Assembly (NCBI GenBank): GCA_003153435.1
Contig: PLYR01000145.1
Span: 20,034-84,033 of the forward strand
Length of the DNA: 64,000 nucleotides
Source: Bacteroidota bacterium
GTDB taxonomy: Bacteria; Bacteroidota; Bacteroidia; Palsa-965
Direction: 5' to 3'
The notes under the pieces are model-generated. The model ran no database searches. It was given only the letters and a program-made list of their open reading frames with translations, and had not been told where the DNA came from. Below are positions 1-28,637 of the stretch, one piece after another; within the stretch, counting starts at the first letter, position 1; the number at the start of each line of letters is the position of its first letter. Made by a program: the position numbers and the translations under genes.

Positions 1-1
1 G

Positions 2-1165
2 CTTGGGTGCGTAGTGCTGATTCCTACCTATAATAATGAAGCGACACTGGAGCAGGTGATCAAGGGGGTGATGGCTTATACGAGTAAGATCATTGTAGTC
101 AATGACGGTTCAACAGATCATACAGTCGACATCCTTGCGAGCTTTCCGGGGCTTCAGATAATCAACCACGACCGAAACATCGGAAAGGGAATGGCCTTGA
201 GAAATGGATTTAAAGCCGCTCTGGAGGCCGGATACCGATATGTGATTACGATTGACAGCGACGGGCAGCATTTTCCATCCGACTTTCATCTCTTTCTGGA
301 TAAAATAACCCTAGAACCTGATTCGGTGATCATCGGGGCACGAAACATGACGGTGGATCATGTGCCCGGGAAGAGCACCTTCGGAAATAAATTCTCTAAT
401 TTCTGGTTCCTTGTTGAAACAGGAATCCGTCTTCCGGATACACAAAGCGGCTTCCGTCTATATCCGATTGAAAGGATGAAGAAGCTTCGTTTTTTTACCA
501 AACGTTTTGAATTCGAAATTGAAGTACTTGTAAAGGCTGCCTGGAACCAGATCCCGATCACTTCTGTTCCTGTAAATGTTTACTATGCAAAGGAAGGTGA
601 GCGGGTCTCTCATTTCCGGCCAGGGAAAGACTTCACTCGAATCAGCTTCCTCAATACATGGCTGGTTATCCTGGCCTACCTTTGGTATCGCCCGGTAGGC
701 ATTCTAAGAAACCTGAGCCCTTCACATATTCAGACTTTCCTGCAAAAAGCATTTCAAGACCCGGGTGAATCCATACTCCGTAAATCAGTGGCAGTGGGGG
801 TGGGGGTGTTCTTCGGAATACTTCCTATATGGGGATTTCAGCTTGCTGCGGCAATCTTTGCCGCTATCCTTCTTAAATTGAACAAAGCTATTGTAGCACT
901 AAGTGCCAACATCAGTGTTCCTCCCATGATCCCGCTCATCCTCTATGGAAGTCTGAAGACAGGAGAGTTGCTTACGGGTCGGGCAGTAAAACTTGAATTT
1001 AAAGGATTGAATATCGAGCTTCTCAAAGCCAATGCATATAATTTCTATGTATATATTTTCGGAGCAGTAGTATTGTCAGTGGCAGCTGCGGTGTTCTCCG
1101 GATTCTTAACTTACCTCTTACTCCGTATCTGGGGGCGAAAACCAACATCAGCTGCCCGTATATGA
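2..1165 (+). CDS. GT2 glycosyltransferase with a C-terminal DUF2062 membrane domain. It is 5'-partial: the ORF is open to the window edge.
   Basis: It has the IPTYNNE...VVNDGSTD...DSDGQ motifs of GT2 (DPM1/Bactoprenol-glucosyltransferase type). The C-terminus has hydrophobic DUF2062-like helices. The reading frame stays open upstream of the first GTG to base 2. The stop overlaps the next start (ATGA). Confidence 0.8.
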   Translation, partial: LGCVVLIPTYNNEATLEQVIKGVMAYTSKIIVVNDGSTDHTVDILASFPGLQIINHDRNIGKGMALRNGFKAALEAGYRYVITIDSDGQHFPSDFHLFLDKITLEPDSVIIGARNMTVDHVPGKSTFGNKFSNFWFLVETGIRLPDTQSGFRLYPIERMKKLRFFTKRFEFEIEVLVKAAWNQIPITSVPVNVYYAKEGERVSHFRPGKDFTRISFLNTWLVILAYLWYRPVGILRNLSPSHIQTFLQKAFQDPGESILRKSVAVGVGVFFGILPIWGFQLAAAIFAAILLKLNKAIVALSANISVPPMIPLILYGSLKTGELLTGRAVKLEFKGLNIELLKANAYNFYVYIFGAVVLSVAAAVFSGFLTYLLLRIWGRKPTSAARI

Positions 1166-4100
1166 ACCTATCCATCTCCCTCTTTCGTTTTTTAAGAAGA
1201 CATAAGCTCGTTTTTTTTATCGGGGTTATTTCGATCATGGTGGCTAGTGGCTATTTCGGTTCCAGGATTACTCTGGAAGAAGATATCACACGGTTTATCC
1301 CAAAGGATCCCAAAATTGATAAAATCAATTTTGTGCTGCAGAACCTTAAAATAAAAGATAAACTCATCATCAACATCTTTCAGGAAGACACTGCTGCTCC
1401 GGCATCCCCTTCTTCCCTGATGAGTATTGCTGATTCCGTTCACGAGGCCATTACGAAAGTGCTGGGTTCAGCTTATATCAAGGATTTTACCTACAAGGTT
1501 TCTGACGATTTAATGCTGCAGGTATATCATACTTTTTATGAAAACCTTCCTTTATTTCTGGATGAAAATAGTTACTCAAAAATTAACGGTATGCTTCCCG
1601 GAGATAGCATTGACCGTATCCTTAAGGCGGATTATAAGACACTTTTAAGTCCTTCCAGCATTGTCTTTTCCCGCTTTATAAAAAAAGATCCACTGAACAT
1701 TACGCTGCTGGCATTGAAGAAAATGCAGACCCTTCAGTTTGATGAAAATTTTGAGGTGAATGAGGGTTATATAATGACCAAGAACAGAAAGAACCTGCTC
1801 CTTTTTATCACACCGGCTTCTGCCTCTAACGAGACTGCAAAGAATGAACGCCTGATCACCTGTCTTGACAGCATTACTCAGAAAATATCTTCTTTGAATA
1901 AACATGCCGTGCAAGTCCAATATTACGGAGCTACGGCTGTTTCTGTTGGAAACGCCAGGCAGATTAAGAAAGATTCCATCTTTACTACTTTAATCGCTTT
2001 GTTTGGTATTGTATTGGTGTTAAGCCTGTTCTTCCGCAACAAATTGATCATTTTCCTGATTGTTTTGCCAGTAGCCTTTGGAGCTGTGTTCGCTCTGGCT
2101 ATCCTTTACCTCCTGAAAGGGCAGGTCAGTGCTATTGCTCTTGGTGCCGGATCAGTAATCCTTGGGATTGCAATTAATTATTCGATGCACTTCCTTACAC
2201 ATTTCAAGCGGGAGCGGTCGGTAGAAAATGTGATTCGTGATCTCACAGCCCCGATGCTCATTGGTTGTATCACAACTGTAGGTGCCTTTATCAGTCTGGT
2301 GTTTGTTAAATCAGAGGCTCTGCATGACTTCGGTCTATTTGCAGGTTTCAGCCTCGTAGGTTCTGTTCTGTTTACATTGATCGTTCTCCCACATCTTCTG
2401 AAATATGAAGAACCTAAGGAAGCTGGTGTAAGCGAAGAACCGAAGTTGAATTTTGTTGAACGTCTGGTTACCTATCGTCTCGATAAGAATAAATGGGTGC
2501 TGATGATTTCCTTTGCCCTTACCATTCTCTTTGCATATACCGCAAACAATGTAGGGTTCGAAAGTGACATGCTGAAAATCAATTACCAGGATGAAGCATT
2601 GAACAAAGCTCAAAAAAATCTGGATGAAGTAAATAATCTTTCCCTTCGTTCGGTGTACCTGGTTGCCAGCGGGAAGGACCTCAATTCAGCACTCCTGCAT
2701 AGTGAACAAAACATACCCAGGCTGGAGGAACTCAAAAAGCAGGGAATCGTAAAGAAGTATTCCTCTGTAAGCACGTTGTTAATCTCCGATTCTCTGCAGC
2801 ACGTCAGGGTTAGGAGATGGAATGCGTTCTGGACTCAGCAGAAAAAAGATAGCCTGAAAATGAAGCTGGTAACACTTGGCAGAAAATACAAATTCAAGGA
2901 TGAAGCATTCAGCGATTTCTATGCGCTGCTTGACCGCAGCTTCAGTACAAGCGGTGTCAACAGACTTGACACCCTGCGTAAGCTGGTTCTGAACGACTGG
3001 GTGACTGAAAATAAGGCACTTTCTACAGTGGTGACGATGGTGAAGGTGGACGGAAAGGACAAGCAAAAGATCTATGATGCATTTGCAAATAAGCCCGACT
3101 TGGTTGTCTTTGACAAACAGTTTATGACCTCTCAGTTTGTAGATGTCATCAGTTCGGATTTCATGCTGATTCTGGTTATGACCTCCTTACTCGTGCTGGG
3201 CTTTATGCTATTATCGCATGGAAGGATTGAACTTACCCTGATTAATTTCCTCCCCATGTTCATCAGCTGGCTTTGGATTCTGGGTTTGATGGGACTCATC
3301 GGATTGAAGTTTAATATCATCAATATTATTATCTCCACATTTATATTTGGTCTGGGTGATGACTATAGTATCTTCATTATGGACGGACTTCAGAATGAAT
3401 ATAAATACGGACGTAAAAACCTGGACTCCTACAAGACGGCTATTTTCATGTCGGCAGTTACAACCATTATCGGAATCGGCGTATTGATTTTTGCAAAGCA
3501 CCCGGCGCTGCAGTCCATTGCCATCATTACAATTATCGGGATGTTTACAGTCCTTTTTGTTTCCTTCATCACTCAGCCCTTACTCTATAATTTTCTAATC
3601 CTCGACCGGGCAAAACGGAAACTCCTCCCTTATACCGCTCTCAATCTTTTGATTACGTTCTGGGGCTTTCTGATGTTTACGCTCGGAAGTATCCTTGTTA
3701 ACCTGATTGGATTCGCTCTCTTCTTCCTCGTTCCTGCTCCGGTTTCAAAGAAGAAATTATTTTTTCACCGAATCATTCAATGGACCTGCAAAGGAATGAT
3801 CTATATGTTTGTGACCGTTCGGAAAAAAATAATCAATGAACATCATGAAGATTTCTCTAAACCAGCTATCATCATTGCCAATCACCAATCACATATTGAC
3901 CTCGGACTTACCCTGATGCTTCATCCGAAAATCATCGCTTTTACGAGCGACTGGGTATGGAAATCTCCATTTTATGGCAAGATTGCCCGTTTTGCTGATT
4001 ATTATCCTGCCTCGAGAGGGTATGAGACCGGTATTGCACAGGTAAAAGCAATGGTAGAAAAAGGATACTCTGTTCTTATTTTTCCCGAAGGAACACGCTC

Positions 4101-5025
4101 GAGAGATAACGAGATACACCGTTTTCATAAAGGCGCTTTCCTGTTGGCGGAGCAGCTGCAGATCGATATACTTCCTATACTCATCCATGGTGCCGGGGAT
4201 TGTGTGACTAAGGGAGATTTCCATTTCAAGGAGGGACGGCTTACAGTGAAGATCCTGGCTCGGATCAAGCCGGAAGACATGCGCTACGGAATCACCTATG
4301 CGGAGCGGACAAAAGGGATTTGCAGGGAGATGAGAAAAGAATATGCAGAGCTCCGTAAAGAGATTGAAACACCTGATTATTTCAGGGCCAGACTGATTAA
4401 GAACTTCATTTATAAAGGCCCGGTGCTTGAGTGGTACTGCCGGATCAAACTGTCATTGGAAGGCAACTATAAACTCTTTGATTCACTCTTACCAAAGAAA
4501 GGCGTGATTACTGACGTAGGTTGCGGATACGGATTCCTTCCTTACATGCTTTCTTTTACGGCACCTGAACGAATCATTCTAGGTGTTGATTACGATGATG
4601 AAAAAATCGCAGTAGCAGCGGCTTGTGTATCGAGAACAGAAAATTTGTCATTTCAGCAGGGAGATGTAACTTCCTATGATTTCCCGGAGAGTGATGCTTT
4701 CATTATCAGCGATGTTCTTCATTATCTGGAACAGTCTCAACAGGGGGAGCTGGTCAGACATTGTGCTTCAAAGCTCAAGCCCGGTGGAATGATGATCATA
4801 AGAGATGCAAACCGTGATCTGGAGAAACGTCATTGGGGAACACGCTATACCGAATTCTTTTCAACCAAGGTGCTGGGATTTAATAAAACTAGCACTAAAG
4901 GTCTCCACTTTATGTCGGCCCGGATAATGGAAGAGACGCTGAATGAAATTGGAAATGTGACCTATGAAATCATTGATAATACTAAATTGACCTCAAATAT
5001 TATCTTTGTAGTACGGCATAAATAA
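1162..5025 (+). CDS. Triple-fusion protein. Residues ~1-800 form an MMPL/RND-like predicted exporter with two sterol-sensing-type TM bundles. Residues ~830-1010 form a PlsC-type lysophospholipid acyltransferase. Residues ~1060-1287 form a class I SAM-dependent methyltransferase.
   Basis: There are two 6-TM blocks. The acyltransferase motifs NHQSHID (HX4D) and FPEGTR are present. Methyltransferase motif I is VTDVGCGYG, post-I is GVDYDD, and motif II is DAFIISDVLHYL. Translation starts with ATG at 1162 and is coupled to the upstream GT2 gene. Confidence 0.7.
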   Translation: MNLSISLFRFLRRHKLVFFIGVISIMVASGYFGSRITLEEDITRFIPKDPKIDKINFVLQNLKIKDKLIINIFQEDTAAPASPSSLMSIADSVHEAITKVLGSAYIKDFTYKVSDDLMLQVYHTFYENLPLFLDENSYSKINGMLPGDSIDRILKADYKTLLSPSSIVFSRFIKKDPLNITLLALKKMQTLQFDENFEVNEGYIMTKNRKNLLLFITPASASNETAKNERLITCLDSITQKISSLNKHAVQVQYYGATAVSVGNARQIKKDSIFTTLIALFGIVLVLSLFFRNKLIIFLIVLPVAFGAVFALAILYLLKGQVSAIALGAGSVILGIAINYSMHFLTHFKRERSVENVIRDLTAPMLIGCITTVGAFISLVFVKSEALHDFGLFAGFSLVGSVLFTLIVLPHLLKYEEPKEAGVSEEPKLNFVERLVTYRLDKNKWVLMISFALTILFAYTANNVGFESDMLKINYQDEALNKAQKNLDEVNNLSLRSVYLVASGKDLNSALLHSEQNIPRLEELKKQGIVKKYSSVSTLLISDSLQHVRVRRWNAFWTQQKKDSLKMKLVTLGRKYKFKDEAFSDFYALLDRSFSTSGVNRLDTLRKLVLNDWVTENKALSTVVTMVKVDGKDKQKIYDAFANKPDLVVFDKQFMTSQFVDVISSDFMLILVMTSLLVLGFMLLSHGRIELTLINFLPMFISWLWILGLMGLIGLKFNIINIIISTFIFGLGDDYSIFIMDGLQNEYKYGRKNLDSYKTAIFMSAVTTIIGIGVLIFAKHPALQSIAIITIIGMFTVLFVSFITQPLLYNFLILDRAKRKLLPYTALNLLITFWGFLMFTLGSILVNLIGFALFFLVPAPVSKKKLFFHRIIQWTCKGMIYMFVTVRKKIINEHHEDFSKPAIIIANHQSHIDLGLTLMLHPKIIAFTSDWVWKSPFYGKIARFADYYPASRGYETGIAQVKAMVEKGYSVLIFPEGTRSRDNEIHRFHKGAFLLAEQLQIDILPILIHGAGDCVTKGDFHFKEGRLTVKILARIKPEDMRYGITYAERTKGICREMRKEYAELRKEIETPDYFRARLIKNFIYKGPVLEWYCRIKLSLEGNYKLFDSLLPKKGVITDVGCGYGFLPYMLSFTAPERIILGVDYDDEKIAVAAACVSRTENLSFQQGDVTSYDFPESDAFIISDVLHYLEQSQQGELVRHCASKLKPGGMMIIRDANRDLEKRHWGTRYTEFFSTKVLGFNKTSTKGLHFMSARIMEETLNEIGNVTYEIIDNTKLTSNIIFVVRHK

Positions 5026-5051
5026 CTTCTGCACTCATCTGCACTCAATTC

Positions 5052-6575
5052 ATGGCTAAATACGATATTGTTATTGTGGGGAGTGGCCTAGGGGGGCTGT
5101 GCTGTGGATATATCCTCAGCAAGGAAGGCTTTAATGTTTGTATCCTCGAAAAAAACAGACAGCTTGGCGGGAGCCTGCAGATATTTTCCAGAGATAAAGC
5201 CCTCTTTGATACCGGCATTCATTATATCGGAGGTCTTGATGAAGGACAGAACCTAAACCGGTACTTTCAGTATTTTGGTTTGATGGACAAGCTCAAGCTC
5301 AAGCGAATGGATATGGATGCGTTTGATGTCATCACCTTTGAGGGAGACCCTAAGCAGTATCATCATGCTCAGGGTTATGATAATTTTGTGAATGTCCTGG
5401 CTCTTCAATTTCCTGGAGAAAGGGAAAATATACAAAGGTATGCGGATAGGGTCAGAGAGATCTGTGATTATTTTCCTCTATATCGTCTTAGAGAAGATAA
5501 TAAGGACCTGCTCACGAGCAGTAGCTTTCTGGAGACAGACACCAAGCAGTATATTGAATCCATAACCACCAACCCGAAACTTCGGAGTGTGTTGGCAGGT
5601 TCTAACCCCTTATATGCCGGGATCCCGAATCGTACTCCGCTTTATGTACATGCATTGGTTGTGAATACGTATATTGAAAGTTCTTGGAAGTGTATTGATG
5701 GTGGAGCTCAGATCAGTAAACATCTTTCTCAATCCATAAAGGGGATGGGAGGCACTATTCTCAATTACAGTGATGCGAAAAAGTTTCACTTCAACGGTTC
5801 TAACATTGAATCCGTTGAACTTGCGGATGGGTCAAGAGTGGAAGCCAAACATTTTATTTCCAATGCGGATCTTTCAAGGACTCTGGAGATGGTTGAAGGA
5901 AACCAGGTAAGACCCGCTTACCGGTCGCGGATTAATGGATTGGAGAACACGATTTCAGCATTTATAGTCAATATTGTTTTTAAAAAAGAGAGTTTCCCTT
6001 ACCTCAATTATAATTGTTACCACTTTGCGACTGATGATGTCTGGTGCGGCACCACTTATACCCAGGAAACATGGCCTGACGGATTGGCAATTTTTACTGC
6101 GCCGAATTCACGTACCGGTCAGTATGCCGATAGTATGACGGTGATGTGCTATATGCACTATGATGAAACCAAGCAATGGGCTGGTACCCGAAGCACGATT
6201 CCGAATCAAATTGAATTCCGTGGGGAAGGGTATGAAGCTTTCAAACAAGAGAAATCAGAAAAGATGATTGATCTCCTGGAAAAACGGTTTCCCGGAATAC
6301 GTTCAAGCATTCAATCCTACACGTCATCCAGCCCTCTTACCTACAGAGATTATATCGGCTCCCGGGATGGAACACTCTATGGAATTCAAAAAGATTATAG
6401 AGACCCTCTTAAAACATTTATTACTCCCAAAACAAAAATTCCAAACTTGTTACTGACTGGTCAGAACCTGAACTTGCATGGTGTGTTGGGAGTTACAGTG
6501 AGTTCTGTGGTAACCTGTGCAGAGCTTGTCGGACAGAAGGACCTGATCAGGAAAATCAGTGCCGCATCGAGTTAA
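5052..6575 (+). CDS. FAD/NAD(P)-binding oxidoreductase of the phytoene-desaturase (CrtI/COG1233) family
   Basis: The N-terminus has the dinucleotide-binding motif DIVIVGSGLGGLCCGYIL...LEKN..LGG. The length of about 507 aa fits the CrtI-like amine-oxidase fold. Confidence 0.65.
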   Translation: MAKYDIVIVGSGLGGLCCGYILSKEGFNVCILEKNRQLGGSLQIFSRDKALFDTGIHYIGGLDEGQNLNRYFQYFGLMDKLKLKRMDMDAFDVITFEGDPKQYHHAQGYDNFVNVLALQFPGERENIQRYADRVREICDYFPLYRLREDNKDLLTSSSFLETDTKQYIESITTNPKLRSVLAGSNPLYAGIPNRTPLYVHALVVNTYIESSWKCIDGGAQISKHLSQSIKGMGGTILNYSDAKKFHFNGSNIESVELADGSRVEAKHFISNADLSRTLEMVEGNQVRPAYRSRINGLENTISAFIVNIVFKKESFPYLNYNCYHFATDDVWCGTTYTQETWPDGLAIFTAPNSRTGQYADSMTVMCYMHYDETKQWAGTRSTIPNQIEFRGEGYEAFKQEKSEKMIDLLEKRFPGIRSSIQSYTSSSPLTYRDYIGSRDGTLYGIQKDYRDPLKTFITPKTKIPNLLLTGQNLNLHGVLGVTVSSVVTCAELVGQKDLIRKISAASS

Positions 6576-6590
6576 TACCTGACAACCTAT

Positions 6591-7334
6591 TTATAGATTT
6601 TCAAGCATCTTTATCACCTCTGGTCTTTTTCTAGAGGAAACAGGTACTTGGGTGCCGTCCTGCATAATGATGTAACCTCCCTCTGTTTTTACAAATTCCT
6701 TTATAAACCGGGTGTTAATAAGGTGGGAGTTGTGAACCCTGTAAAATCCATGGCCGGAAAGCATTTCTTCAAAATCCTTCATCGTACGAGTCACTACTAG
6801 TTTTTTACCGTTGGTAAAGAAGAATTCGGTATAATTTATGCTCGATTCGCATCGCTGTATCTCAGAAATACTCACTACATGAATTTTGTCCAGAGAATGG
6901 AGTGCTAATTTCTCCTGCTTTTTTTGCCCTCCGTCGATGGTCCTCTTCAGTAATTCCAGACTAAGTTCAGATCCATGCAACGTACCCGACGCTTTTTTGA
7001 CAGCCTGTTTAAGCTCCTCAGGATCGATGGGCTTGAGAAGGTAGTCGACCGCCGAAAACCTAAAAGCCTTGATTGCATGAGCATCAGAGGCGGTGGTAAA
7101 TATAATCCGGAAGGGAATATCTTTCAGGATATCCAACAGGTCAAACCCGCTTCCATCCTGCATCTGAATGTCCAGGAAAACAACATCCGGGTGGAGATTC
7201 TTTAATATTCTTGCGCCTTCTACAACGCCGCCTGCTTCTCCGATAATCTGAACTTCTGGACAAAGATTCTCCAGGTCCTTTCTCAGTGTTTTGCGGGCGT
7301 CTTCAATATCGTCTATAAGAATGGCTTTCAGCAT
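6591..7334 (-). CDS. Two-component response regulator with a CheY-like receiver domain and a LytTR DNA-binding domain
   Basis: It has the receiver motifs ILIDD...D(54)-like FLDIQM...KP. The C-terminus is a LytTR-type beta domain. It lies immediately downstream of the sensor kinase on the same strand. Confidence 0.8.
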   Translation of the reverse strand: MLKAILIDDIEDARKTLRKDLENLCPEVQIIGEAGGVVEGARILKNLHPDVVFLDIQMQDGSGFDLLDILKDIPFRIIFTTASDAHAIKAFRFSAVDYLLKPIDPEELKQAVKKASGTLHGSELSLELLKRTIDGGQKKQEKLALHSLDKIHVVSISEIQRCESSINYTEFFFTNGKKLVVTRTMKDFEEMLSGHGFYRVHNSHLINTRFIKEFVKTEGGYIIMQDGTQVPVSSRKRPEVIKMLENL

Positions 7335-7358
7335 GGGAGTTTTATCAAAGATAATTAC

Positions 7359-10300
7359 TTAATTCCTAATAGGGATCCTTATCAGGATCCGGGTTCCGGC
7401 GGGGTTGCCGGAATCGTCCATAAGGTCGGTGATTTCCAGTGTTCTGATTCCTGAATCGGTGTTCATCAGATCAAGCCTCTCTTGAGTAACCACCAACGCA
7501 GTTGATTTGTGCTGATGATCCTGCTGAGCCCTGTTAAGAGAAGCTGCTTTGACTTGTCCAATGCCATTATCGGTAACACTGCACTCCAGAAAATTTCCTT
7601 CTCTCCTAAAACAGATTGTAATTTTACCTCTGCTCTGAAGATGCCGGAGCCCATGAATGACAGCATTTTCGGCGAACGGTTGTATCATCATCGGTGGGAT
7701 TTGTTCTTCAGAAGGAACCAGGCCCTCTCCGCATATGATTTCGAAATCAAACCGGTTTCCGCTGCTAAACTTTTCGAGCGACAGGTAATTCTCTAGTGTA
7801 CTAATCTCTTCCTCCAGTGAGATATAGGTATTTCTGGAGTTTTCAAGGATCATTCGCATGAGTTTGGAGAACTGGGCCAGGTAGTGTCGGGCGGTTTGTT
7901 CATTATTATCTGTAATCTGCGCTTGTATAGAGTTCAGCGCATTGAAAATAAAATGAGGATTCATCTGCAGTCTCAAAGCCTTTTGTTCAAGCTCCAGGAT
8001 TGACTTTTCGGTCTCCAGAAGCTTCCTCTGGGAAGCTGATTTTTTTCGAATAGTTTGGATTCTTAACCTGAAACTAGCTAAGATCAGAAGTATGAGAAAG
8101 ATGAAACTAGAAACAAGAAACCAGGTTTTAAACCAGAAGGGTTTGAGAATAGTAAAGGGGATCAGGGAACTCTGGTCATTCCAGATACCATCTTCATTGC
8201 ACGACTTTACTTCAAAAATGTATTCTCCTGGAGGGAGGTTTGAATAGGTGGCATTTCTTTGCGATGAAGCCGGCGACCAATCCTTTTCCAAACCCTCTAG
8301 TCTCCAGCGGTATTTTACATTTTCAGGAGAACTGAGGTTAATCCCTGTAAATTCAAAACCAATGTGGTTTTGATTATAGGGAAGTAAGAGGGGATGGAGG
8401 AGTTCTGACCATTTGCCGAATACATCCTTGTACTCAGTCTTTTCTATAGGCTCATAGAAAAGGGTTAGCCCGCTAATATGTAACAGCGGAGGGAGTACAT
8501 TCTTTTTTCTGTTACCGGTACTCAGGGAAGTAAGGCCATTGACCGTGCCGAACCAAATTGTACCCTCAGCATCGGTATAAGCCGCATTCTGGCATGTTTC
8601 TATGCCGGAAAAGCCTTCCTTCTTTCCGAAATGATTGATCTCTGCAATATGTCTGCCTTCAGCAAAAACGATCTTGTCAAGTCCGGTTTCTGAGCCTACA
8701 AAAAGATTGTGCTGATTATCCTGTGCCAGCAAGTAAACATTTAGGGAGTTTAGTCCGTTTTGAAGATTTAAATTTTCGAACCTGAAATCAGGGTTCTTCA
8801 GGTTGAGACAGGAGACCCCTGAACCGGCAGTTCCGATCCAGAGATAACCGGCTTGATCATAACAAAGAGATCGAATCAGTTTGCTGTTTAATCCTTCTTT
8901 CTGTCCAAGACAGGCTTCCACATGATTGGTTCGGATATAGCCAATACCTCCTGTTTCTGCTCCGAACCAGATACGGCCTTGATTATCTTCTGCAAGGCAA
9001 TTGATGCGTTCAAGGCCCGGGAAGTCTGACTTTATATGCAGGACGCTGTATCTCTTCTTTGGGCTATCAGAAACGCTGATCTTATATATTCCGGAACCTG
9101 CTGTGGCAACCCACATGTTATGAAGGGAATCCCGCAAAATATACCGTATATATTTTCCGTGAAGTTCATGAATAGGGGTGAAGGCTTCTCCATCATAGGT
9201 ATAAACACCTTGTCCTTCGGTACCGATCCACAAGTCTCCGAAAGAATCTTCACTAATGGCCTTTACTTTTGTGTCTCTGAATCCGTTTTCTGCACCCAGA
9301 GGTCTGAATTGTTTTCCGTCATAAGTGCAAAGACCTTTATCACCCGTACCGATCCAAAGCAGGCCTTGACCGTCGCGGTAAACGCTATAAACAAAATTAC
9401 TGCTGAGGCCATTGTTCTTGTCATAATGATTGAAAGCCTGCCCCGAATATTCACTGACTCCACCTCCCGAAGTGCCAAACCACAGGTTGCTTCGGGTATC
9501 CTGAAGGATGCATCTCACATGATTATTACCAAGTCCGTCGCTTTCCCGTAGAAAATGACAAGTGCTGTCTTCGGGGTTCCAACGGCAAACACCGTCAGTT
9601 AACGTGGCCACCCAAAGGTTGGATAATTTATCAGCTTTGATGTCGAGCACGATCTCCTGGTCAAGCTCATGTTTGGATTTAAGCCTTGAGAAGGAACTGT
9701 TTTTATAGATGAATATGCCAAGTCCGTAAGTTCCGACCAACAAATGGTGTTTCCTGTCTTCCCCAATAGATTGAATGGCATTGGTGCCAAGGCCGCTTCC
9801 TTTGGAGAAGACTGTTACTGCCCTTCCGGAGGAGAGATCAATACGGCATAAACCACAATCACTACTCCCTGCCCAGATTTTGCCTTCACTGTCTTTAAAA
9901 ATGGAGAGTATATTATGGTGAGCAAAGCATTTTTTAAAAAGACTGAAGCTTTTCCCATCGAAAACATAAATTCCATTGTTGGTAGCCAACCATGCGGTTG
10001 AATGGTTCCCCATGGCAATGGCTTGTATATGAACGATACTGCTGTCTTTGTCGGGATAAAAGTTTGTGAATTTTTCTCCGTCAAACACACTCAGTCCGTT
10101 GCTGGTTCCTATCCAAAGCCGGTGTTCGGCGTCCTCTGAAATACAGGAAATGTAATTGCTGGGCAATCCGTCTCTGACGGTATATGTTTTGAAGTTCAAT
10201 CCATCATAGCGACAGACTCCCCCTCCACGGGTCCCCATCCATACATACCCGCGACTATCTTCAAAGAGGGCATAGACCTGGCTTTGAGCCACACCTTCTT

Positions 10301-10400
10301 CTACAGAAAAGTTTCTGAAATGGTATTGCTGGGATGAGCAAGATGCCGGTATGAGGCAGCAGGCTGCAAGAATGAGCGAAAAGTAAAGTAAGGTTTTCAC
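7359..10400 (-). CDS. Sensor histidine kinase, LytS-type. It has a signal peptide, a periplasmic two-component-regulator beta-propeller (Reg_prop repeats), a Y_Y_Y domain, one TM segment, then His_kinase (PF06580-like) and HATPase_c domains.
   Basis: Translation starts with GTG, and a signal peptide is present. About 12 repeated motifs of the type WIGT..GL..YDG are found. The Y_Y_Y signature (KYRWRLEG...W) is present. The LytS-type H-box is NPHFIFNALNSIQ. The ATPase N/G boxes are near the C-terminus. Confidence 0.75.
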   Translation of the reverse strand: MKTLLYFSLILAACCLIPASCSSQQYHFRNFSVEEGVAQSQVYALFEDSRGYVWMGTRGGGVCRYDGLNFKTYTVRDGLPSNYISCISEDAEHRLWIGTSNGLSVFDGEKFTNFYPDKDSSIVHIQAIAMGNHSTAWLATNNGIYVFDGKSFSLFKKCFAHHNILSIFKDSEGKIWAGSSDCGLCRIDLSSGRAVTVFSKGSGLGTNAIQSIGEDRKHHLLVGTYGLGIFIYKNSSFSRLKSKHELDQEIVLDIKADKLSNLWVATLTDGVCRWNPEDSTCHFLRESDGLGNNHVRCILQDTRSNLWFGTSGGGVSEYSGQAFNHYDKNNGLSSNFVYSVYRDGQGLLWIGTGDKGLCTYDGKQFRPLGAENGFRDTKVKAISEDSFGDLWIGTEGQGVYTYDGEAFTPIHELHGKYIRYILRDSLHNMWVATAGSGIYKISVSDSPKKRYSVLHIKSDFPGLERINCLAEDNQGRIWFGAETGGIGYIRTNHVEACLGQKEGLNSKLIRSLCYDQAGYLWIGTAGSGVSCLNLKNPDFRFENLNLQNGLNSLNVYLLAQDNQHNLFVGSETGLDKIVFAEGRHIAEINHFGKKEGFSGIETCQNAAYTDAEGTIWFGTVNGLTSLSTGNRKKNVLPPLLHISGLTLFYEPIEKTEYKDVFGKWSELLHPLLLPYNQNHIGFEFTGINLSSPENVKYRWRLEGLEKDWSPASSQRNATYSNLPPGEYIFEVKSCNEDGIWNDQSSLIPFTILKPFWFKTWFLVSSFIFLILLILASFRLRIQTIRKKSASQRKLLETEKSILELEQKALRLQMNPHFIFNALNSIQAQITDNNEQTARHYLAQFSKLMRMILENSRNTYISLEEEISTLENYLSLEKFSSGNRFDFEIICGEGLVPSEEQIPPMMIQPFAENAVIHGLRHLQSRGKITICFRREGNFLECSVTDNGIGQVKAASLNRAQQDHQHKSTALVVTQERLDLMNTDSGIRTLEITDLMDDSGNPAGTRILIRIPIRN

Positions 10401-10450
10401 AGACGGATTGTCAGAAAACCAAAGATAGTGAATGTTAAAACGAAAACGGG

Positions 10451-10738
10451 TTAAGACTTCGCGCCGGCCGAAAGATACTTCAAGATAAGGACCTTCTGTT
10501 CATCAGTGAACTGGTGTCCGCCTCTTTTGTTTTGCATTTTATCTACGATTGTTGTCCATTCTGCTGCGGTATGGCCACTTGGAGTCGCACGCTTAATGTT
10601 ATGGCACTTGCTGCAGGCAGTATGCCAGGCTCCTTCTTCAGGGGTGGCAGGGGTATAAGTAGAATCGGTAGCTCCTCCTTTTTTTCCGCAGGAGATGATA
10701 ACTAAGCTTATAATCGAAAGGATAAATAATTTTTTCAT
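10451..10738 (-). CDS. Small lipoprotein with a single CxxCH haem-binding motif (a mini c-type cytochrome). It is a paralogue of the gene at 35616-35900.
   Basis: The likely start is an ATG at 10738, giving MKKLFILSIISLVIISC, which is an SPII lipobox. The mature protein is about 75 aa and contains W..ACSKCHN. A Met candidate for the distal haem ligand (DKMQNK) follows. The longer ORF that starts at 10804 lacks a signal peptide. Confidence 0.5.
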   Translation of the reverse strand: MKKLFILSIISLVIISCGKKGGATDSTYTPATPEEGAWHTACSKCHNIKRATPSGHTAAEWTTIVDKMQNKRGGHQFTDEQKVLILKYLSAGAKS

Positions 10739-10834
10739 TCCTGATGTATTTGTTGTTGAATCAAACAGTGAATCAACACCAAAAATAAGCATTTTTTGAA
10801 GCAAGTCACCTTCTGGAGTGAAAATCAGTCAAGG

Positions 10835-11908
10835 TTAAACACTATGAAGATTTTCATGCAGGAGGAAATTGGAGATAAAGTCGCCTGTAGCAGTAGTTGA
10901 TCTCCCTCCTGAAGGGTTTAGATCTAGGGTCAGGGCTTCTGCTTGAATTGCTTCTTCCACAGCTCTGTGGATCCATGCACTCTCCAGTGGGAGCTGAAAC
11001 GAATATTCCAGCATCATTGCAGTAGAAAGAATTGCCCCGATAGGGTTAGCGATGTTCCGGCCTGCTGCTTCCGGCCAGGAACCATGGACGGGTTCATATA
11101 GAGATACTTTATTCCCTATGCTGGCGGAAGGCAGCATACCTAAGGAACCGGTAAGAACAGAAGCTTCATCACTCAGGATATCACCGAACATATTTTCGGT
11201 CAGAATAACATCAAACTGACGTGGGTTCTGTATGAGTTGCATAGCGGCATTGTCTACATACAAATAATCCACTTCCACACCTGGAAAATTGCCGGAGATT
11301 TCTCGTACCACTTCTCGCCAGAGCCTGGACGTCTCCAGGACGTTAGCCTTATCGACCAGGGTCAGCTTTTTCCTTCTTTGCATGGCTGCTTCAAAAGCCG
11401 GAATAGCGATGCGGATTATTTCTTCCCGGGTATAAAGGCAAAGGTCACTTGCTGAATCAGCACTTCTTTTCTTTTCACCGAAATACAACCCTCCTGTCAG
11501 CTCCCGGAAAATCACCAGATTAGCTCCAGCCAGTACTTGAGCTTTCAGCGGTGATCGGTTATAGAGACCAGGATAGCTCTTAACAGGACGGATATTTGCA
11601 TACAATCCCAATTCTTTTCTCATCCTTAACAAGCCTTGTTCAGGACTCATTCCCGATGGGTGGCGCTGATCAAAACGGGGATCCCCAACTGCTCCCAGAA
11701 GGATTGCATCGGAGGAGCGGCATAATTTCCCGGATTCTGGAGGGAATGGATCACCAACAGAGTCGATAGCTGCTGCACCAATCAGTGCTTCTGTAAAGGT
11801 GAATTTATGATTAAACCGGGTTGCTATTGCCTGGAGGATCTTAACAGCCTCCTTTGTGACCTCTTTTCCAATTCCATCGCCCGGAAGCAGTGCTATATTC
11901 TTTTTCAT
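10835..11908 (-). CDS. leuB: 3-isopropylmalate dehydrogenase
   Basis: It has LPGDGIGKEV and the IDH/IMDH fold motifs. It is 357 aa. The start overlaps the leuD stop by 4 bp. Confidence 0.9.
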   Translation of the reverse strand: MKKNIALLPGDGIGKEVTKEAVKILQAIATRFNHKFTFTEALIGAAAIDSVGDPFPPESGKLCRSSDAILLGAVGDPRFDQRHPSGMSPEQGLLRMRKELGLYANIRPVKSYPGLYNRSPLKAQVLAGANLVIFRELTGGLYFGEKKRSADSASDLCLYTREEIIRIAIPAFEAAMQRRKKLTLVDKANVLETSRLWREVVREISGNFPGVEVDYLYVDNAAMQLIQNPRQFDVILTENMFGDILSDEASVLTGSLGMLPSASIGNKVSLYEPVHGSWPEAAGRNIANPIGAILSTAMMLEYSFQLPLESAWIHRAVEEAIQAEALTLDLNPSGGRSTTATGDFISNFLLHENLHSV

Positions 11909-12522
11909 ATTCTGGAAAGGTTTTCAATAGAGGAAGCTTTTTTTTGCTCAAATAACGCGATCTGATCCCGTATCGAGAGAAGGTAATCTATATCGTCCAA
12001 CCCTTCCAGGAGACATAATTTTTTGTATGGGTTTATTACAAAAGGATAGGAGGTGGACTCACCATCGAAGAGTTCTACAAACTGATCTCTAAGATTAACA
12101 CCGATCTGAGTAGAAGGACTTTTCTTGCATTTTGCAAAGAGTTGTTTGAGGATGTTTTCAGGGAGTGTTATGGTAAGCAGACCGATATTAAGTGCGTTGT
12201 TTCGGAAAATGTCAGCAAAGCTTTCGGCAATGATAGCATCGAAGCCATAGTCTTGTATAGCCCATGCAGCATGCTCCCGACTGCTTCCACAGCCGAAATT
12301 TTTGCCTGTCATAAGAATTTTTCCATGAAAGGAGTCGTTGTTGAGGATGAACCCGGCCTTTTTCTTTCCGGAACTGTCGTACCGAAGATCCCGGAATAAA
12401 TTTTCTCCAAAGCCCGTTCTTCCGGTAGCTTTGAGGAACCGGGCCGGAATGATCTGGTCTGTGTCAATATTATCCGCTTCTAGCGGAACAACGGTGGATC
12501 TGAATGATTGAAATTTATTCAT
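11905..12522 (-). CDS. leuD: 3-isopropylmalate dehydratase small subunit
   Basis: It has the LeuD motifs (DNIDTDQIIPARFL, GCGSSREHAAWA). The start was reassigned to the internal ATG (MNKFQSF) at 12522. The listed 263-aa ORF is an upstream read-through that would overlap leuC. Confidence 0.85.
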   Translation of the reverse strand: MNKFQSFRSTVVPLEADNIDTDQIIPARFLKATGRTGFGENLFRDLRYDSSGKKKAGFILNNDSFHGKILMTGKNFGCGSSREHAAWAIQDYGFDAIIAESFADIFRNNALNIGLLTITLPENILKQLFAKCKKSPSTQIGVNLRDQFVELFDGESTSYPFVINPYKKLCLLEGLDDIDYLLSIRDQIALFEQKKASSIENLSRI

Positions 12523-12532
12523 CGTTTCTGAT

Positions 12533-13921
12533 TTAAGATGCCAACATTCGTATATCTGTGATATATCCATTGATGGCGCTTGCTGCCGCTGTTGCAGGGC
12601 TGGCAAGGATGGTTCTGGCACCAGGTCCTTGTCTTCCTTCAAAATTCCGGTTTGAAGTAGCCATACAATAAGAGAGCGGAGGAATCTTATCTTCATTCAT
12701 ACCCAGGCATGCAGAACATCCGGATTCTCTGAACTCAAATCCCGACTCCAGAAAGATATCTTCCAGACCTTCAGATTTGGCTTGTTGACGAACTCTTTGT
12801 GATCCTGGCACAATGAAGGCAATTACATCCTGTGAAACCTTTTTTCCTTTCACTACGGCTGCAACAATGCGCAGATCTTCGATCCTGGAATTGGTACAGC
12901 TTCCAATGAACACATAATCGAGTTTCTTCCCTGCTACTGGCTCCCCACCTTGCCATCCCATATACTCCAGGGCCTTTCTGTCTGACGGATTATTCAATAC
13001 CGGAATATTTGAATCAACGGCGATACCCATTCCAGGGTTAGTACCATAAGTCACCATTGGAGCAAGTCCTGTGATGTCGAAGTGAAGTTCCCTGGCAAAG
13101 AAGGCTCCTTCATCCGAATGTAATTCCTTCCACCTCTCAAGCGCTGCCTCTAATGCTTTTCCTTTGGGAGCGAAGGGCCTGTTTCGGATATACTCCAGGG
13201 TTTTGTCATCAGGTGCAATGATCCCACCACGGGCACCCATTTCTATACTCATATTGCATACGGTCATTCTTTCTTCAATGCTCAGAGCTGATATGGCACT
13301 TCCCATATATTCCACAAAGTGCCCTGTTGCAGCATCTGTTGAGGCCTGGGAGATAATGTATAAAATCAGATCCTTGGAACTTAACCAAGGACCCATTTCT
13401 CCCGTGACACAAATTTTCATTGCCGGGGGTCTCTCCTGAAGCAGGCACTGAGATGCAAAAACTTGCTCCACCTCTGTTGAACCAATCCCAAAAGCAAGGG
13501 CACCAAGTCCTCCGTGAGTGGAAGTATGACTGTCGCCACATACCATGGTCATTCCAGGGAGAGTTATTCCAAGCTCAGGGGCAATAACATGAACAATGCC
13601 TTGATTGGGATGACCAAGACCGAAGAGTTCGATTTCATGCTTCCTGCAGTTCTCCACTAACCGGCTTACCTGCAGTCGTGACATTTCTTCGCGAATAGGA
13701 AGATGTTGATTTATTGTAGGTACATTATGATCTGCAGTTGCCAGCGTTTGCTCTTTACGGAAAACAGAAATACCTCTTTTCTCCAGTCCGGCAAAGGCCT
13801 GAGGGCTAGTTACTTCATGAATGAGGTGTTTATCAATATAGAGCACATCCGGACCGCCTGGGATGCCTGTCACCTTGTGTTCATCCCAGATTTTATCAAA
13901 GAGTGTTTTAGCCTTCTTCAT
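12533..13921 (-). CDS. leuC: 3-isopropylmalate dehydratase large subunit (aconitase family)
   Basis: It has the aconitase-family Fe-S ligand regions (GDSHT, CTNSR, SCSACLG). It is 462 aa. There is a 4-bp overlap with the upstream leuA-like gene. Confidence 0.9.
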
Positions 13922-26450: not shown

Positions 26451-26988
26451 CGTTGTGTTAATGATTATCAAAGGTTAAATCATAACATTGTAAAGCGTAT
26501 CCAATTCGCAATACACGAATCAAATTAATCCGGCCAAATAACAGATTGGACGATGGAATTACTCTTTTGTACGGAAGATTTCAAGAATAGATATACTTTT
26601 CTTAAAATAAACCTCAAAAACAATAATTATATTTGTAATCAGATCAATATTATAGGATTCCCTAAGCCTTATATTATTGATTAGTAGTGAGTTCTGCAGT
26701 GTGGTTCTTGGCTTTAAATTTCCGAAAAATTCCCGAAACCAGACAGGATAATTTGATAACATTCGACCAAAAGTATTTTATTGTCGACAAATATTATTAA
26801 ATATTCGACTAATATACTAAAAATAACTACTAACTAAAGTTTTTAGGCACATAAATTAGGCTTTTGACTGTATAAAATGGCCTTTCATCCAAAAAATAAT
26901 TTCGGAATTCAAGCGCAGACCTTGTAAGATTTCGGCAGGAAATTGTGATCGACAGGCAGGCCGATTTATGGGAAGAAATGCTAATTTA

Positions 26989-27479: not shown

Positions 27480-28541
27480 TTAATTCTTTACACATGAAAG
27501 TTTGTCGTAGTCGAGTACACTTATAAGCCGGCCTTTAATCTCGATAAGCTTTTCATCTTTCAAGTCGCTTAACATCCTGATGGCTGTTTCAGGCGCTGTT
27601 CCGGCCAGGTTTGCCAAATCTTCTCTCGAGATGCTGATACTGAAATTAGCTTCTCCATCTTTCTTGTACCTGTTGTAAAGTGTGACAAGCGCTTCCGCCA
27701 CCCGTTTACGAACGGAATTGTAGGCAAGTTTGAGGAGTTGGTCTTCTTTGTCAATTAAATCATTGGAAAGCATCTTGATAAATTTCTTTGAAACATCAGC
27801 ACTTTTATAAATCAGGGAGAAAAAATTATCTTTCGGAATCATGCAGATTTCAGAGTCTTCCAAAGTCATCGCCTCCTCTGTGTATTTGCTTTCTTCAAGC
27901 AAGGATAAGTGACCGAAAAATTCACCTTCCTTATAAAGACCATTGATGAATTCTTTCCCGAATTCATTTGTTTTAAAGGTTTTCACCTTTCCTTTAATAA
28001 CGAAATAAATTCCTTTAGGGTATCCTCCTGAGCTATATATTGATTCTTTCTTGCGGTAGTGATGAATATCCCGGTCTTCAGAAAGTTTTTTAAGGGTATC
28101 CAACCCTCCTGTTTCATTCATAAAGTCCTGAAGCCCTTCCAGACTTCTTTCGAATTTCTTCTTGAGATTATCAGCCTTTTTCAGTCTGCTGTCAATAGCA
28201 TTTAGCAGTTCCATATCGTCGAAAGGTTTGGTGATATAATCATCGGCTCCCATTTCCATTCCTTTTCTGAAATCATTCCTTTCGGTTTTGGCGGTAAGGA
28301 ATATAAAGGGGATATTGGAAGTTTCAGGGTTTTTGCCAAGCATATGCAATACGCCATAGCCATCCAGATGAGGCATCATGATATCACAAATAATTAAATC
28401 AGGCATTTCCGCAGAAACCATTTCCATACCTTCTTTTCCATTTGAAGCAGCCCTTACCTTATATCTGGCAAGTTCAAGCATTTCAGTCGTATTTTCCCGA
28501 AGTTCCGTGTTATCTTCGATTAAGAGGATTTTTTTGTGCAT
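27480..28541 (-). CDS. Fusion regulator with a CheY-like receiver domain, a cNMP-binding (CRP/FNR effector) domain and a Crp-type HTH
   Basis: The receiver motifs are LLIEDN...DLIICDIMMP...LTAK. A cNMP beta-roll with G-rich motifs follows. The C-terminal HTH is REDLANLAGTAPETAIRML. The start is placed at the ATG at 28541, 6 bp inside the listed TTG. It is a paralogue of the gene at 39439-40500. Confidence 0.75.
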   Translation of the reverse strand: MHKKILLIEDNTELRENTTEMLELARYKVRAASNGKEGMEMVSAEMPDLIICDIMMPHLDGYGVLHMLGKNPETSNIPFIFLTAKTERNDFRKGMEMGADDYITKPFDDMELLNAIDSRLKKADNLKKKFERSLEGLQDFMNETGGLDTLKKLSEDRDIHHYRKKESIYSSGGYPKGIYFVIKGKVKTFKTNEFGKEFINGLYKEGEFFGHLSLLEESKYTEEAMTLEDSEICMIPKDNFFSLIYKSADVSKKFIKMLSNDLIDKEDQLLKLAYNSVRKRVAEALVTLYNRYKKDGEANFSISISREDLANLAGTAPETAIRMLSDLKDEKLIEIKGRLISVLDYDKLSCVKN

Positions 28542-28637
28542 ATTCAAGTTGTTAATTATGATTGGCTCCTCTTTAAATTAAACAAATGTTAAGAATTCTT
28601 GCGATACCAAAATTAGGGAATGGATCCTTGGTAAACA

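Follow-up and report, generated by a model that had tools for sequence, protein, structure and literature searches.

Probable Flexirubin-Type Cluster Genes flxT–flxU–flxV from an Uncultured Bacteroidia Bacterium

Introduction

Flexirubin clusters are among the commonest biosynthetic gene clusters in Bacteroidota. The 64,000-nucleotide stretch of DNA analysed here (the window, from contig PLYR01000145.1) begins with a glycosyltransferase gene, a single reading frame that joins an exporter to two enzymes, and a flavoprotein gene. The questions raised by this locus were which pathway the three genes belong to and whether the three-part frame is a genuine and rare protein. The best explanation, which was held with high confidence, was that positions 2–6575 carry flxT–flxU–flxV, the distal end of a flexirubin-type cluster, with roles assigned by homology. 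The features of this segment were as follows.

2–1165, plus strand: homologue of flxT, encoding a GT2 glycosyltransferase that ends in a DUF2062 membrane domain
1162–1165, plus strand: ATGA start/stop overlap of flxT and flxU (ATG 1162–1164, TGA 1163–1165)
1162–5025, plus strand: flxU, whole ORF, 1287 aa, MMPL/RND transporter, PlsC-type acyltransferase and class I methyltransferase
1162–3603, plus strand: FlxU residues 1–814, MMPL/RND (HAE3/HpnN-like) transporter module
3604–4296, plus strand: FlxU residues 815–1045, PlsC-type (LPLAT) acyltransferase, anchored in the membrane by two N-terminal helices
4297–5025, plus strand: FlxU residues 1046–1287 and stop codon, helical linker and class I SAM-dependent methyltransferase
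5052–6575, plus strand: homologue of flxV, encoding an FAD-dependent oxidoreductase (CrtI/CrtISO/RetSat superfamily)

Genomic Context of the Locus

The upstream neighbourhood was read on the source contig (loci L001 and L087, 19 kb upstream). The start of the cluster had been expected outside the window, and PKS, DarB, LolA2 and LolB2 genes were found there. The type II PKS set of the two loci comprised four KS, two CLF-like proteins and two ACPs, and there were also genes for two dehydratases (ApeP-like and ApeI-like) and for a 4HBT thioesterase. The upstream features are listed below.

flxC, flxD and flxE-like genes, upstream: KS, ACP and LpxL-like acyltransferase, respectively
L087 5602–6741: darB, DarB model NF053539, 569.1 bits (cut-off 550)
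After darB, in order: ApeP-like dehydratase, 4HBT thioesterase, KS, FlxL-like protein, ACP
After this ACP, in order: KS, CLF, polysaccharide deacetylase, LolA2, LolB2 and, last, the ApeI-like dehydratase
LolA2_flexi: NF053544, 219.8 bits (cut-off 125)
LolB2_flexi: NF053540, 83.4 bits (cut-off 60)

DarB, LolA2 and LolB2 all scored above NCBI's flexirubin-specific cut-offs, and LolA2 and LolB2 are always present in flexirubin loci (PMC11885536). The three genes of the window were identified as flxT, flxU and flxV because of this upstream context and the flxH–flxV order of Chitinophaga pinensis. In that species, FlxT–FlxU–FlxV are encoded by Cpin_1872–1874, arranged identically and likewise closing the block at its distal end, and the syntenic block shared with the present locus consisted of flxH, I, L, M, N, O, P, Q, R, S, T, U and V. 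Compared by gene order and annotation, the same trio was found in Flavobacterium johnsoniae (Fjoh_1079–1077). In the published clusters, FlxT is annotated as a GT2 enzyme and FlxV as a retinol-reductase/phytoene-desaturase-like flavoprotein (PMC3992019). The position of flxU between flxT and flxV was seen in the window, was common to about 35 related loci and agreed with the published order. The location of darB inside the cluster was also as in F. johnsoniae. Unlike C. pinensis, the present locus had neither flxJ (a separate methyltransferase) nor flxK (halogenase) between flxI and flxL, contained two unrelated minus-strand genes between flxS and flxT, and showed no flxW, flxX or flxY after flxV.

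The dialkylresorcinol branch was represented by DarB and by a 310-aa ORF directly upstream of darB, which is a positional candidate for DarA; this ORF and three other small ORFs upstream of darB matched no Pfam or NCBIfam family above threshold. Moreover, neither the 19 kb upstream nor the sequence downstream of flxV showed flxA (TAL), flxB (KR), flxW or flxY, so the cluster was incomplete as viewed. Among these, FlxA (tyrosine ammonia-lyase) and FlxY (4-coumarate-CoA ligase) are the starter-unit enzymes; the ENA contig ends about 2.3 kb past L087. Flexirubin clusters are split in some genomes, and darAB lies apart from the remainder in C. pinensis (Schöner et al., 2014, PMC3992019).

A scan of positions 1–7400 gave 15 sigma-70 promoter matches, compared with 13.3 in shuffled sequences and with a tool whose coverage does not extend to Bacteroidota promoters; seven intrinsic terminators were predicted in the same interval, compared with 6.8 in the shuffles, and neither count thus differed from the shuffled background. 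The pigment type of the cluster would be aryl-polyene/dialkylresorcinol, and the host is an uncultured Bacteroidia bacterium represented by a MAG.

FlxT and the flxT/flxU Junction

The first 16 codons of flxT lie outside the window, and the full gene encodes 403 aa (L001 8793–10004). The product had been described as a GT2 enzyme with a DUF2062 tail, and both Pfam domains were recovered above the gathering cut-offs (Glycos_transf_2, residues 5–119, E = 1e-23; DUF2062, residues 262–380, E = 1e-16). Hydrophobic segments were located at residues 274–331 and 361–392, and the GT2–DUF2062 combination was present in all of the best 120 FlxT homologues. The best NCBIfam similarities were to lipid-phosphate sugar transferases (AglJ, PpgS and dolichyl-P hexose transferase), all below cut-off. 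FlxT also aligned with the GT2 half of E. coli ApeJ (34% identity, E = 1e-34). The preliminary description had spoken of translational coupling through ATGA overlaps; a single overlap was present, at the flxT/flxU junction. The two genes were adjacent in relatives as well, but the overlap was not constant, being replaced by a 3-nt gap in L002 and L003.

Domain Composition of FlxU

The proposed combination of exporter, acyltransferase and methyltransferase in one 1287-aa ORF was borne out by three Pfam domains above the gathering cut-offs. MMPL was matched in two stretches (E = 6e-17, 62 bits vs. a gathering value of 20.5), the middle segment was identified as Acyltransferase PF01553 (residues 899–1008, E = 2.5e-21), and the C-terminal segment as Methyltransf_25 (residues 1116–1209, E = 2.6e-13), with Methyltransf_25, 11, 31 and 12 all above their cut-offs. 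An open frame of 1287 codons with three independent domain matches is far beyond chance. The domain order in the single polypeptide was MMPL, PF01553 and methyltransferase. The HX4D, FPEGTR and GCGYG motifs reported earlier were located at residues 908–913 (HQSHID), 974–979 and within 1116–1124 (ITDVGCGYG), respectively, and the RND motif GLGDDY was found at 730–735. The NCBIfam library contained no FlxU-specific model and gave sub-threshold generic matches only.

The hydropathy profile of the transporter module displayed about 12 TM segments and two large periplasmic loops. GLGDDY, which holds the charged relay residues of TM10, was invariant in FlxU homologues. The Pfam score, the TM layout and the TM10 relay residues placed the module in the RND superfamily as an MMPL/HAE3-type protein. 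The NCBIfam matches to HAE3 (TIGR00921, E = 9e-39, 133 bits vs. a cut-off of 352) and HpnN (TIGR03480, E = 2e-35, 122 vs. 752) were both below cut-off; by sequence, the module is related to these equivalogs and is a member of neither. Residues 142–806 aligned with residues 121–765 of ApeM (772 aa) at 20% identity (E = 2e-13), and the closest solved structure was Burkholderia HpnN 5khn (E = 4e-12).

For residues 815–1287, the AF2 model (pLDDT 83, pTM 0.80) had a PlsC-like fold that included the two-helix anchor. T. maritima PlsC 5kym matched the acyltransferase by sequence (E = 1e-12, 24% identity) and, according to Foldseek, matched the predicted FlxU model by fold (TM 0.78 over the whole chain, 241 residues). 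HX4D and FPEGTR were invariant in 12 and in 35 homologues. The two motifs, the PF01553 match above cut-off and the PlsC fold assigned the domain to the LPLAT/PlsC acyltransferases; its identity to ApeD was 31% (E = 4e-14).

The C-terminal domain was classified as a class I SAM-dependent methyltransferase from motif I, the fold and the Pfam families above cut-off. Motif I (D1118-G1120-C-G-Y-G1124) was invariant in homologues, and the modelled fold resembled the small-molecule methyltransferases MM_2633, CysG/BelI and SgvM (TM of about 0.7). The domain shared 26% identity with ApeB over 133 aa. This similarity was weak (E = 0.004), so that the domain was not a clear ApeB orthologue and was not assigned to that family.

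Comparison with Related Systems

The aryl-polyene lipid (APEL) clusters of E. coli CFT073 and Xenorhabdus doucetiae provided counterparts module by module in ApeM, ApeD and ApeJ. FlxT matched the N-terminal half of ApeJ, whereas the FlxE-like protein matched its C-terminal half (E = 2e-29). LolA-like and LolB-like proteins, a thioesterase, two ACPs and two dehydratases were common to the flx and ape systems. The pattern of fusion differed between the two. In Proteobacteria, ApeM, ApeD and ApeB are separate genes and the GT2 domain is fused to an LpxL-like acyltransferase (ApeJ), whereas in Bacteroidota the RND, LPLAT and methyltransferase parts are fused and the GT2 domain is joined to DUF2062. 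Furthermore, the CrtI-like flavoprotein, polysaccharide deacetylase and DarB, all present here, are absent from ape clusters. The roles of ApeD, ApeJ, ApeB and ApeM have been proposed from genetics (10.1101/2020.12.19.423268, PMC8253772).

The hopanoid RND transporter HpnN (5khn/6wu0) likewise has 12 TM segments and two periplasmic loops and moves lipid from the inner towards the outer membrane, but it carries no fused enzymes. The first-half relay motif was N339-Y340 in FlxU, vs. Asp in HpnN/HAE3-type transporters. T. maritima PlsC (5kym) has HX4D, FPEGTR and the two-helix anchor in common with the FlxU acyltransferase. Unlike PlsC, the FlxU domain scored below the AGP_acyltrn cut-off (66 vs. 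103), shares one chain with a transporter and a methyltransferase, and probably uses a polyenoyl-ACP of the cluster as acyl donor. In mycobacteria, an MmpL7–PpsE interaction for PDIM was reportedly described by Jain and Cox in 2005. An MMPL-type exporter would there be physically linked to the last lipid-assembling enzyme, as is proposed for FlxU; the mycobacterial link is a protein–protein interaction, whereas that of FlxU is a covalent fusion.

Proposed Function of FlxT and FlxU

The likely role, as judged from homology to the Xenorhabdus/E. coli ape system, PlsC and HpnN, is the acylation of a membrane lipid coupled to its export towards LolA2 and LolB2. FlxU would be an inner-membrane protein whose acyltransferase and methyltransferase domains face the cytoplasm directly after TM12. 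The PlsC-like domain, as the equivalent of ApeD, would transfer an ACP-bound polyenoyl or conjugated acyl chain to a membrane-embedded acceptor. The invariance of the phosphate-binding Arg in FPEGTR makes a phosphorylated, lysophospholipid-like acceptor probable. FlxT, corresponding to the GT2 half of ApeJ, would add hexosamine to the phosphate of the acceptor lipid, and the methyltransferase domain would add a methyl group to the product or to the aryl head group. The RND module, as the counterpart of ApeM, would then extract the finished lipid from the inner membrane and deliver it to periplasmic LolA2, from which it would be handed to LolB2 and inserted into the outer membrane. The fusion would hence couple the last synthetic steps to export. 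To our knowledge, classical flexirubin contains no sugar, glycerol or phosphate, and the lysophospholipid acceptor is thus only an analogy with the ape lipids. The searchable literature on FlxT, FlxU, FlxV, Cpin_1873 and Fjoh_1078 yielded Schöner et al. (2014) alone and no experiment, and a search on the APPE family contributed nothing further.

The same gene identities could also accommodate a different chemistry, in which the FlxU acyltransferase forms the flexirubin ester itself: the phenolic OH of a membrane-embedded dialkylresorcinol would receive the aryl-polyenoyl chain carried by ACP, and the RND module would export flexirubin directly, with no glycolipid involved. DarB is encoded in the same cluster, PlsC-type enzymes acylate the hydroxyls of membrane amphiphiles with acyl-ACP, and fusion to an exporter suits an enzyme of the last step. 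Moreover, Schöner et al. offered FlxW as ester-forming enzyme only as a speculation, and flxW does not adjoin flxV here. However, the invariant phosphate-binding Arg and the action of the homologue ApeD on a lysophospholipid oppose this chemistry, in which, moreover, FlxT (GT2), FlxE (LpxL-like) and the polysaccharide deacetylase would have no function despite their one-to-one conservation with the ape system. Direct ester formation was considered unlikely on balance, while retaining an appreciable chance.

Fusions outside Flexirubin Clusters

In about 40 related species-level loci, the intact fusion was surrounded by housekeeping genes and the 10 kb around it contained no flx gene; the role of FlxU may therefore not be strictly tied to pigment. 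FlxU-type fusions might have a broader envelope-lipid function, for example in remodelling and exporting a phospholipid or glycolipid of the outer membrane, and flexirubin clusters would be one context of it. These stand-alone loci favour such a function, as does the fact that HpnN, the closest solved transporter, moves bulk membrane lipids (hopanoids). In the window, however, flxU lies inside a flexirubin cluster and overlaps flxT. Furthermore, the separation of darAB in C. pinensis demonstrates that these clusters can be split, and the genomes with a stand-alone fusion may accordingly hold the remaining flx genes elsewhere. A pigment-independent function in general was judged quite improbable.

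FlxV and the Carotenoid Pathway

The preliminary description had placed a phytoene-desaturase-family flavoprotein 27 bp after the fusion; a CrtI-superfamily ORF does follow, across a spacer of 26 nt. Directly 3' of the fusion, a flavoprotein gene was also present in about 35 related loci. NAD_binding_8 and Amino_oxidase were detected in FlxV above the Pfam gathering cut-offs. The best NCBIfam matches were far below cut-off (carotenoid isomerase, 99 bits vs. 587; CrtD, 91 vs. 550), crtI_fam TIGR02734 reached 74 bits vs. 238, and the CrtI structure 4dgk matched with E = 5e-7. Judged by these scores, FlxV is related to CrtI/phytoene desaturase at the superfamily level only and lies outside the family. 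In the proposed flexirubin-type pathway, FlxV may act on a polyene double bond by reduction or isomerisation, which is the weakest of the functional assignments.

The earlier pathway proposal had two parts. The aryl-polyene/flexirubin part was upheld by the PKS, DarB and Lol genes and the flx order. The other part, in which the trio would be the half of a CruC/CruD-type pathway that tailors and exports carotenoid glycoside esters and the flavoprotein would be a carotenoid desaturase, was highly improbable. The superfamily of the flavoprotein agrees with this reading, and the pairing of a glycosyltransferase with an acyltransferase superficially recalls CruC/CruD. Nevertheless, the neighbours are type II PKS genes with DarB, LolA2 and LolB2, the crtI_fam score is far too low, and the acyltransferase is of the PlsC type and homologous to ApeD. 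A scan of the window ORFs as far as about 47.7 kb and of the 19 kb upstream revealed no phytoene synthase, cyclase or other crt gene, and the assignment to CruC/CruD was rejected from the PKS context, the PlsC/ApeD-like acyltransferase and the lack of crt genes in the scanned stretch.

Conservation of the Fusion

The trifunctional FlxU is a conserved single polypeptide and the dominant architecture of its family in Bacteroidota. The open frame was compared in 85 loci (80 species loci and five others), all but two of which were labelled Bacteroidota. At least 1250 codons were kept open in 75 of the 85; most of the remaining 10 were cut by contig ends, and a few were slightly shorter variants of 1237–1249 codons. 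A representative library was searched with the AT-MT half of FlxU, and 115 of the 150 best AT-MT representatives had a length of 1228–1301 aa. More than 120 full-length FlxU homologues were obtained. The domain junctions were conserved, with no indel-rich linker. As the nearest proxies for Cpin_1873 and Fjoh_1078, Chitinophagales, Chitinophagaceae and Flavobacteriales MAG loci had 43–45% identity over the full length. The same architecture was present in Aurantibacillus circumpalustris, whose genome is complete. That separate genes for an exporter, an acyltransferase and a methyltransferase were joined artificially by misassembly or a frameshift, for which nothing speaks beyond the metagenomic source of the assembly, has practically no likelihood and was ruled out by the recurrence of the full-length frame, with its conserved junctions, in independent assemblies including this complete genome.

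The triple fusion had been regarded as unusual, and these counts contradict that view. FlxU was already annotated as exporter, acyltransferase and methyltransferase in 2014 (Schöner et al., PMC3992019), and the gene table of a 2026 paper calls the product "trifunctional", in a wording that resembles NCBI annotation. Both the triple fusion and the gene trio are already known, standard parts of flexirubin clusters.

Implications

As a discovery, the locus carries little weight, since the trio and the fusion are catalogued flexirubin parts. Its residual value lies in the roles of FlxT, FlxU and FlxV and in the route of flexirubin, or of a larger lipid conjugate, to the outer membrane. Concrete testable hypotheses follow from the gene-by-gene match to the ape system and from the different pattern of domain fusion. 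Two further propositions are conceivable, though rather unlikely. In the first, the flexirubin clusters of Bacteroidota also make an unrecognised APEL-like hexosamine-phospho-glycerolipid; FlxU would then be a covalent "synthesise-and-export" machine, in which acylation and methylation on the cytoplasmic face feed its own RND channel and then LolA2 and LolB2. In the second, the approximately 40 species with an intact stand-alone fusion among housekeeping genes would use this machine for an outer-membrane lipid that has no relation to pigment.

Three Genes at the Window Start

Three genes in the same direction were confirmed at the start of the window from the ORF list and the translations. The Pfam domains listed all scored above the gathering scores.

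window edge to 1165, + strand: flxT, open frame; Glycos_transf_2 and DUF2062
1162–5025, + strand: flxU, 1287 codons; MMPL (two stretches), Acyltransferase PF01553 (residues 899–1008) and several class I methyltransferase families (residues 1116–1209)
5052–6575, + strand: flxV, 507 codons; NAD_binding_8 and Amino_oxidase

The motifs named in the preliminary description were found in FlxU (HQSHID, 908–913; FPEGTR, 974–979; DVGCGYG, 1118–1124), and an RND-type GLGDDY at residues 730–735 was additional to them. The ATGA coupling described for flxT and flxU exists as one overlap (1162–1165), not several, and the short spacer before flxV is present but measures 26 nt rather than 27 bp.

Identity of the Cluster

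A 117-kb ENA contig encodes the exact FlxU protein, as does a 151-kb contig from NCBI. In L001 and L087, the source-contig stretches spanning the trio and the region further upstream, the gene order 5′ of the trio was as follows.

KS, ACP, LpxL-like acyltransferase
four small unassigned ORFs, KAS III-type enzyme, ApeP-like dehydratase
SLT gene (opposite strand)
4HBT thioesterase, KS, 220-aa KS-like protein, ACP, KS, CLF
polysaccharide deacetylase, LolA, 215-aa protein, ApeI-like dehydratase
thioredoxin-like and DUF4421 genes (opposite strand), then flxT–flxU–flxV

The flexirubin cluster flxA–flxY of C. pinensis is listed in Table S4 of Schöner et al. (2014; PMC3992019), and its block flxH, I, L, M, N, O, P, Q, R, S, T, U, V is ordered as in the present locus. 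FlxT of C. pinensis is a family 2 glycosyltransferase, and the F. johnsoniae homologues of flxT, flxU and flxV are Fjoh_1079, Fjoh_1078 and Fjoh_1077 (PMC3992019). The published order and protein descriptions match the locus; hence, the trio is flxT–flxU–flxV. Three neighbours exceeded the cut-offs of curated flexirubin-specific NCBIfam models, namely DarB (569 bits vs. 550), LolA2_flexi (220 vs. 125) and LolB2_flexi (83 vs. 60). This gene order and these scores establish the aryl-polyene/flexirubin alternative of the preliminary description as correct. The carotenoid-glycoside-ester (CruC/CruD-type) pathway proposed alongside it fails because a scan of the window ORFs to ~47.7 kb and of the 19 kb upstream detected no crt genes, and FlxV scored far under every carotenoid family cut-off.

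Directly upstream of the window start (L001 6518–8684, minus strand), flxS is separated from flxT by two genes, one for a 357-aa double thioredoxin-like (DsbH-type) protein and one for a 345-aa DUF4421 protein. In five related loci (L002, L003, L012, L018 and L030), flxS and flxT are adjacent. Four ORFs (165, 312, 89 and 310 aa) occupy L087 2511–5554, between the LpxL-like acyltransferase gene and darB; a Pfam/NCBIfam search of them gave no family above threshold. From its position immediately 5′ of darB, the 310-aa ORF is a DarA candidate.

Distribution of the Fusion

The best 120 of 1142 FlxU homologues were all ~1281–1307 aa long and had all three of the Pfam signatures, and the complete genome of Aurantibacillus circumpalustris was among those with the full fusion. 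Among GTDB species genomes, 137 relatives were detected. Of the 80 best, nearly all carried a Bacteroidota label (Bacteroidia MAGs, Sphingobacteriaceae, Chitinophagales, Cyclobacteriaceae, Roseivirgaceae, Flavobacteriales and Draconibacterium), and two labels seem to reflect binning or unclassified entries. Their identity to FlxU was 40–77%, mostly across residues ~2–1287, with some matches cut by contig ends or stopping near residue 1215. When these 80 were pooled with five further loci, a frame of at least 1250 codons was open in 75 of the 85; most of the others were truncated at a contig edge, and the rest included some slightly shorter variant forms. The acyltransferase–methyltransferase half alone was also searched against 1.84 billion cluster representatives, with 562 matches at E ≤ 1e-30. 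Among the best 150, 115 were 1228–1301 aa long and matched at the C-terminus, and the shorter proteins appeared to be mostly N-terminally truncated fragments. In the FlxU alignments, the catalytic residues were invariant and the domain junctions were conserved without gaps. An assembly or frameshift artefact is refuted by the retention of the fusion across many genomes, the open frames and the conserved junctions. The full-length form is widespread in Bacteroidota, where calling it unusual was wrong. The triple fusion, recorded as early as 2014, is a known, annotated architecture; a product name of "trifunctional" appears in the gene table of a 2026 paper, the wording apparently being NCBI annotation.

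In about 40 of the 85 loci, each from a different species, the fusion was intact without any flx gene within 10 kb (L004, L005, L019–L023, L025–L029, L031–L036, L038–L054, L056, L058, L059, L077 and L086; fusion at ~10001–13850 in most). These proteins were 54–56% identical to the window FlxU, with intact catalytic motifs in the aligned members, and two housekeeping contexts recurred (DUF900/Pth/VitK2 ... peptidase M42/GH3 and thrS-infC-rplT/TauE/BadF-like ... peptidase M3). A Chitinophagales/Draconibacterium subgroup (L075, L078–L081 and L085) had a shortened, divergent methyltransferase domain in the C-terminal ~200 residues, without the conserved DVLHYL and RDA...RHxGTRYTEFFST...GFNKT block. 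Motif I was kept in the Chitinophagales loci and degenerate in L085, and these loci usually lacked a GT2 gene directly upstream. This form is possibly a paralogue whose methyltransferase function has changed or been lost.

Downstream Genes

The genes 3′ of the trio are unrelated to it: a LytTR response regulator in convergent orientation, a Y_Y_Y histidine kinase and leu genes.

6591–7334, − strand: LytTR response regulator, converging on the flxV end (stop codons 15 nt apart)
7359–10400, − strand: Reg_prop/Y_Y_Y/His_kinase hybrid sensor, likewise converging on the flxV end
20133–26471, − strand: 2112-aa protein; 13 SprB repeats, PKD domain, CHU_C type IX secretion signal
27480–28547, − strand, and 39439–40500, + strand: two paralogous fusions of receiver, cNMP-binding domain and Crp-type HTH
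32334–33425, − strand, and 38143–39414, + strand: PAS-HisKA-HATPase kinases, the second directly upstream of the regulator at 39439–40500

No evidence was found for regulation of the pigment genes by the LytTR regulator or hybrid sensor. The 2112-aa protein resembles cell-surface proteins of the gliding-motility or adhesin type. Between the regulator and kinase genes lie those for hemerythrin, Usp, Nramp and rhodanese/beta-lactamase proteins. An inositol-monophosphatase-family gene came next after flxV, overlapping or adjacent, in Aurantibacillus and in one Sphingobacteriaceae genome (L002 15388–16173; L003 15392–16180); the window has none at this position.

Comparison with the ape Genes and Proposed Function

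The modules were compared with the aryl-polyene (ape) cluster of E. coli CFT073. FlxU residues 142–806 (RND part) aligned with ApeM 121–765 (E 2e-13), and its acyltransferase with ApeD (31% identity, E 4e-14). The N-terminal half of ApeJ matched the GT2 domain of FlxT (34% identity, E 1e-34), and its C-terminal half matched a separate LpxL-like FlxE homologue (E 2e-29). The similarity between ApeB and the FlxU methyltransferase was only marginal (E 0.004). For Xenorhabdus, roles were proposed from genetics and structure elucidation, in which ApeD transfers a conjugated fatty acyl chain to sn-2 of a lysophospholipid, ApeJ glycosylates the phosphate with GalNAc and next links the aryl-polyene to this sugar, ApeB is the ring methyltransferase, and ApeM exports the lipid with LolA-like and LolB-like proteins (10.1101/2020.12.19.423268; PMC8253772).

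The closest solved structures were HpnN, PlsC and CrtI. The AlphaFold model of FlxU residues 815–1287 (pLDDT 83, pTM 0.80) matched PlsC (TM 0.78) along the entire PlsC chain, two-helix interfacial anchor included, and also generic small-molecule methyltransferases. The hydropathy order of FlxU was TM1, periplasmic loop, TM2–6, TM7, second loop, TM8–12 and then the PlsC anchor. From this order, the acyltransferase and methyltransferase domains should both lie on the cytoplasmic face beside the transporter. The best family similarities of FlxT were to lipid-phosphate sugar transferases (e.g., AglJ and PpgS), which fits sugar transfer onto a lipid phosphate. By homology, FlxU would acylate a membrane lipid intermediate, the candidate acceptors being the dialkylresorcinol itself or, by analogy with ApeD, a lysophospholipid. 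It would perhaps also methylate this intermediate, and would export the finished product, with LolA2/LolB2 receiving it (PMC11885536).
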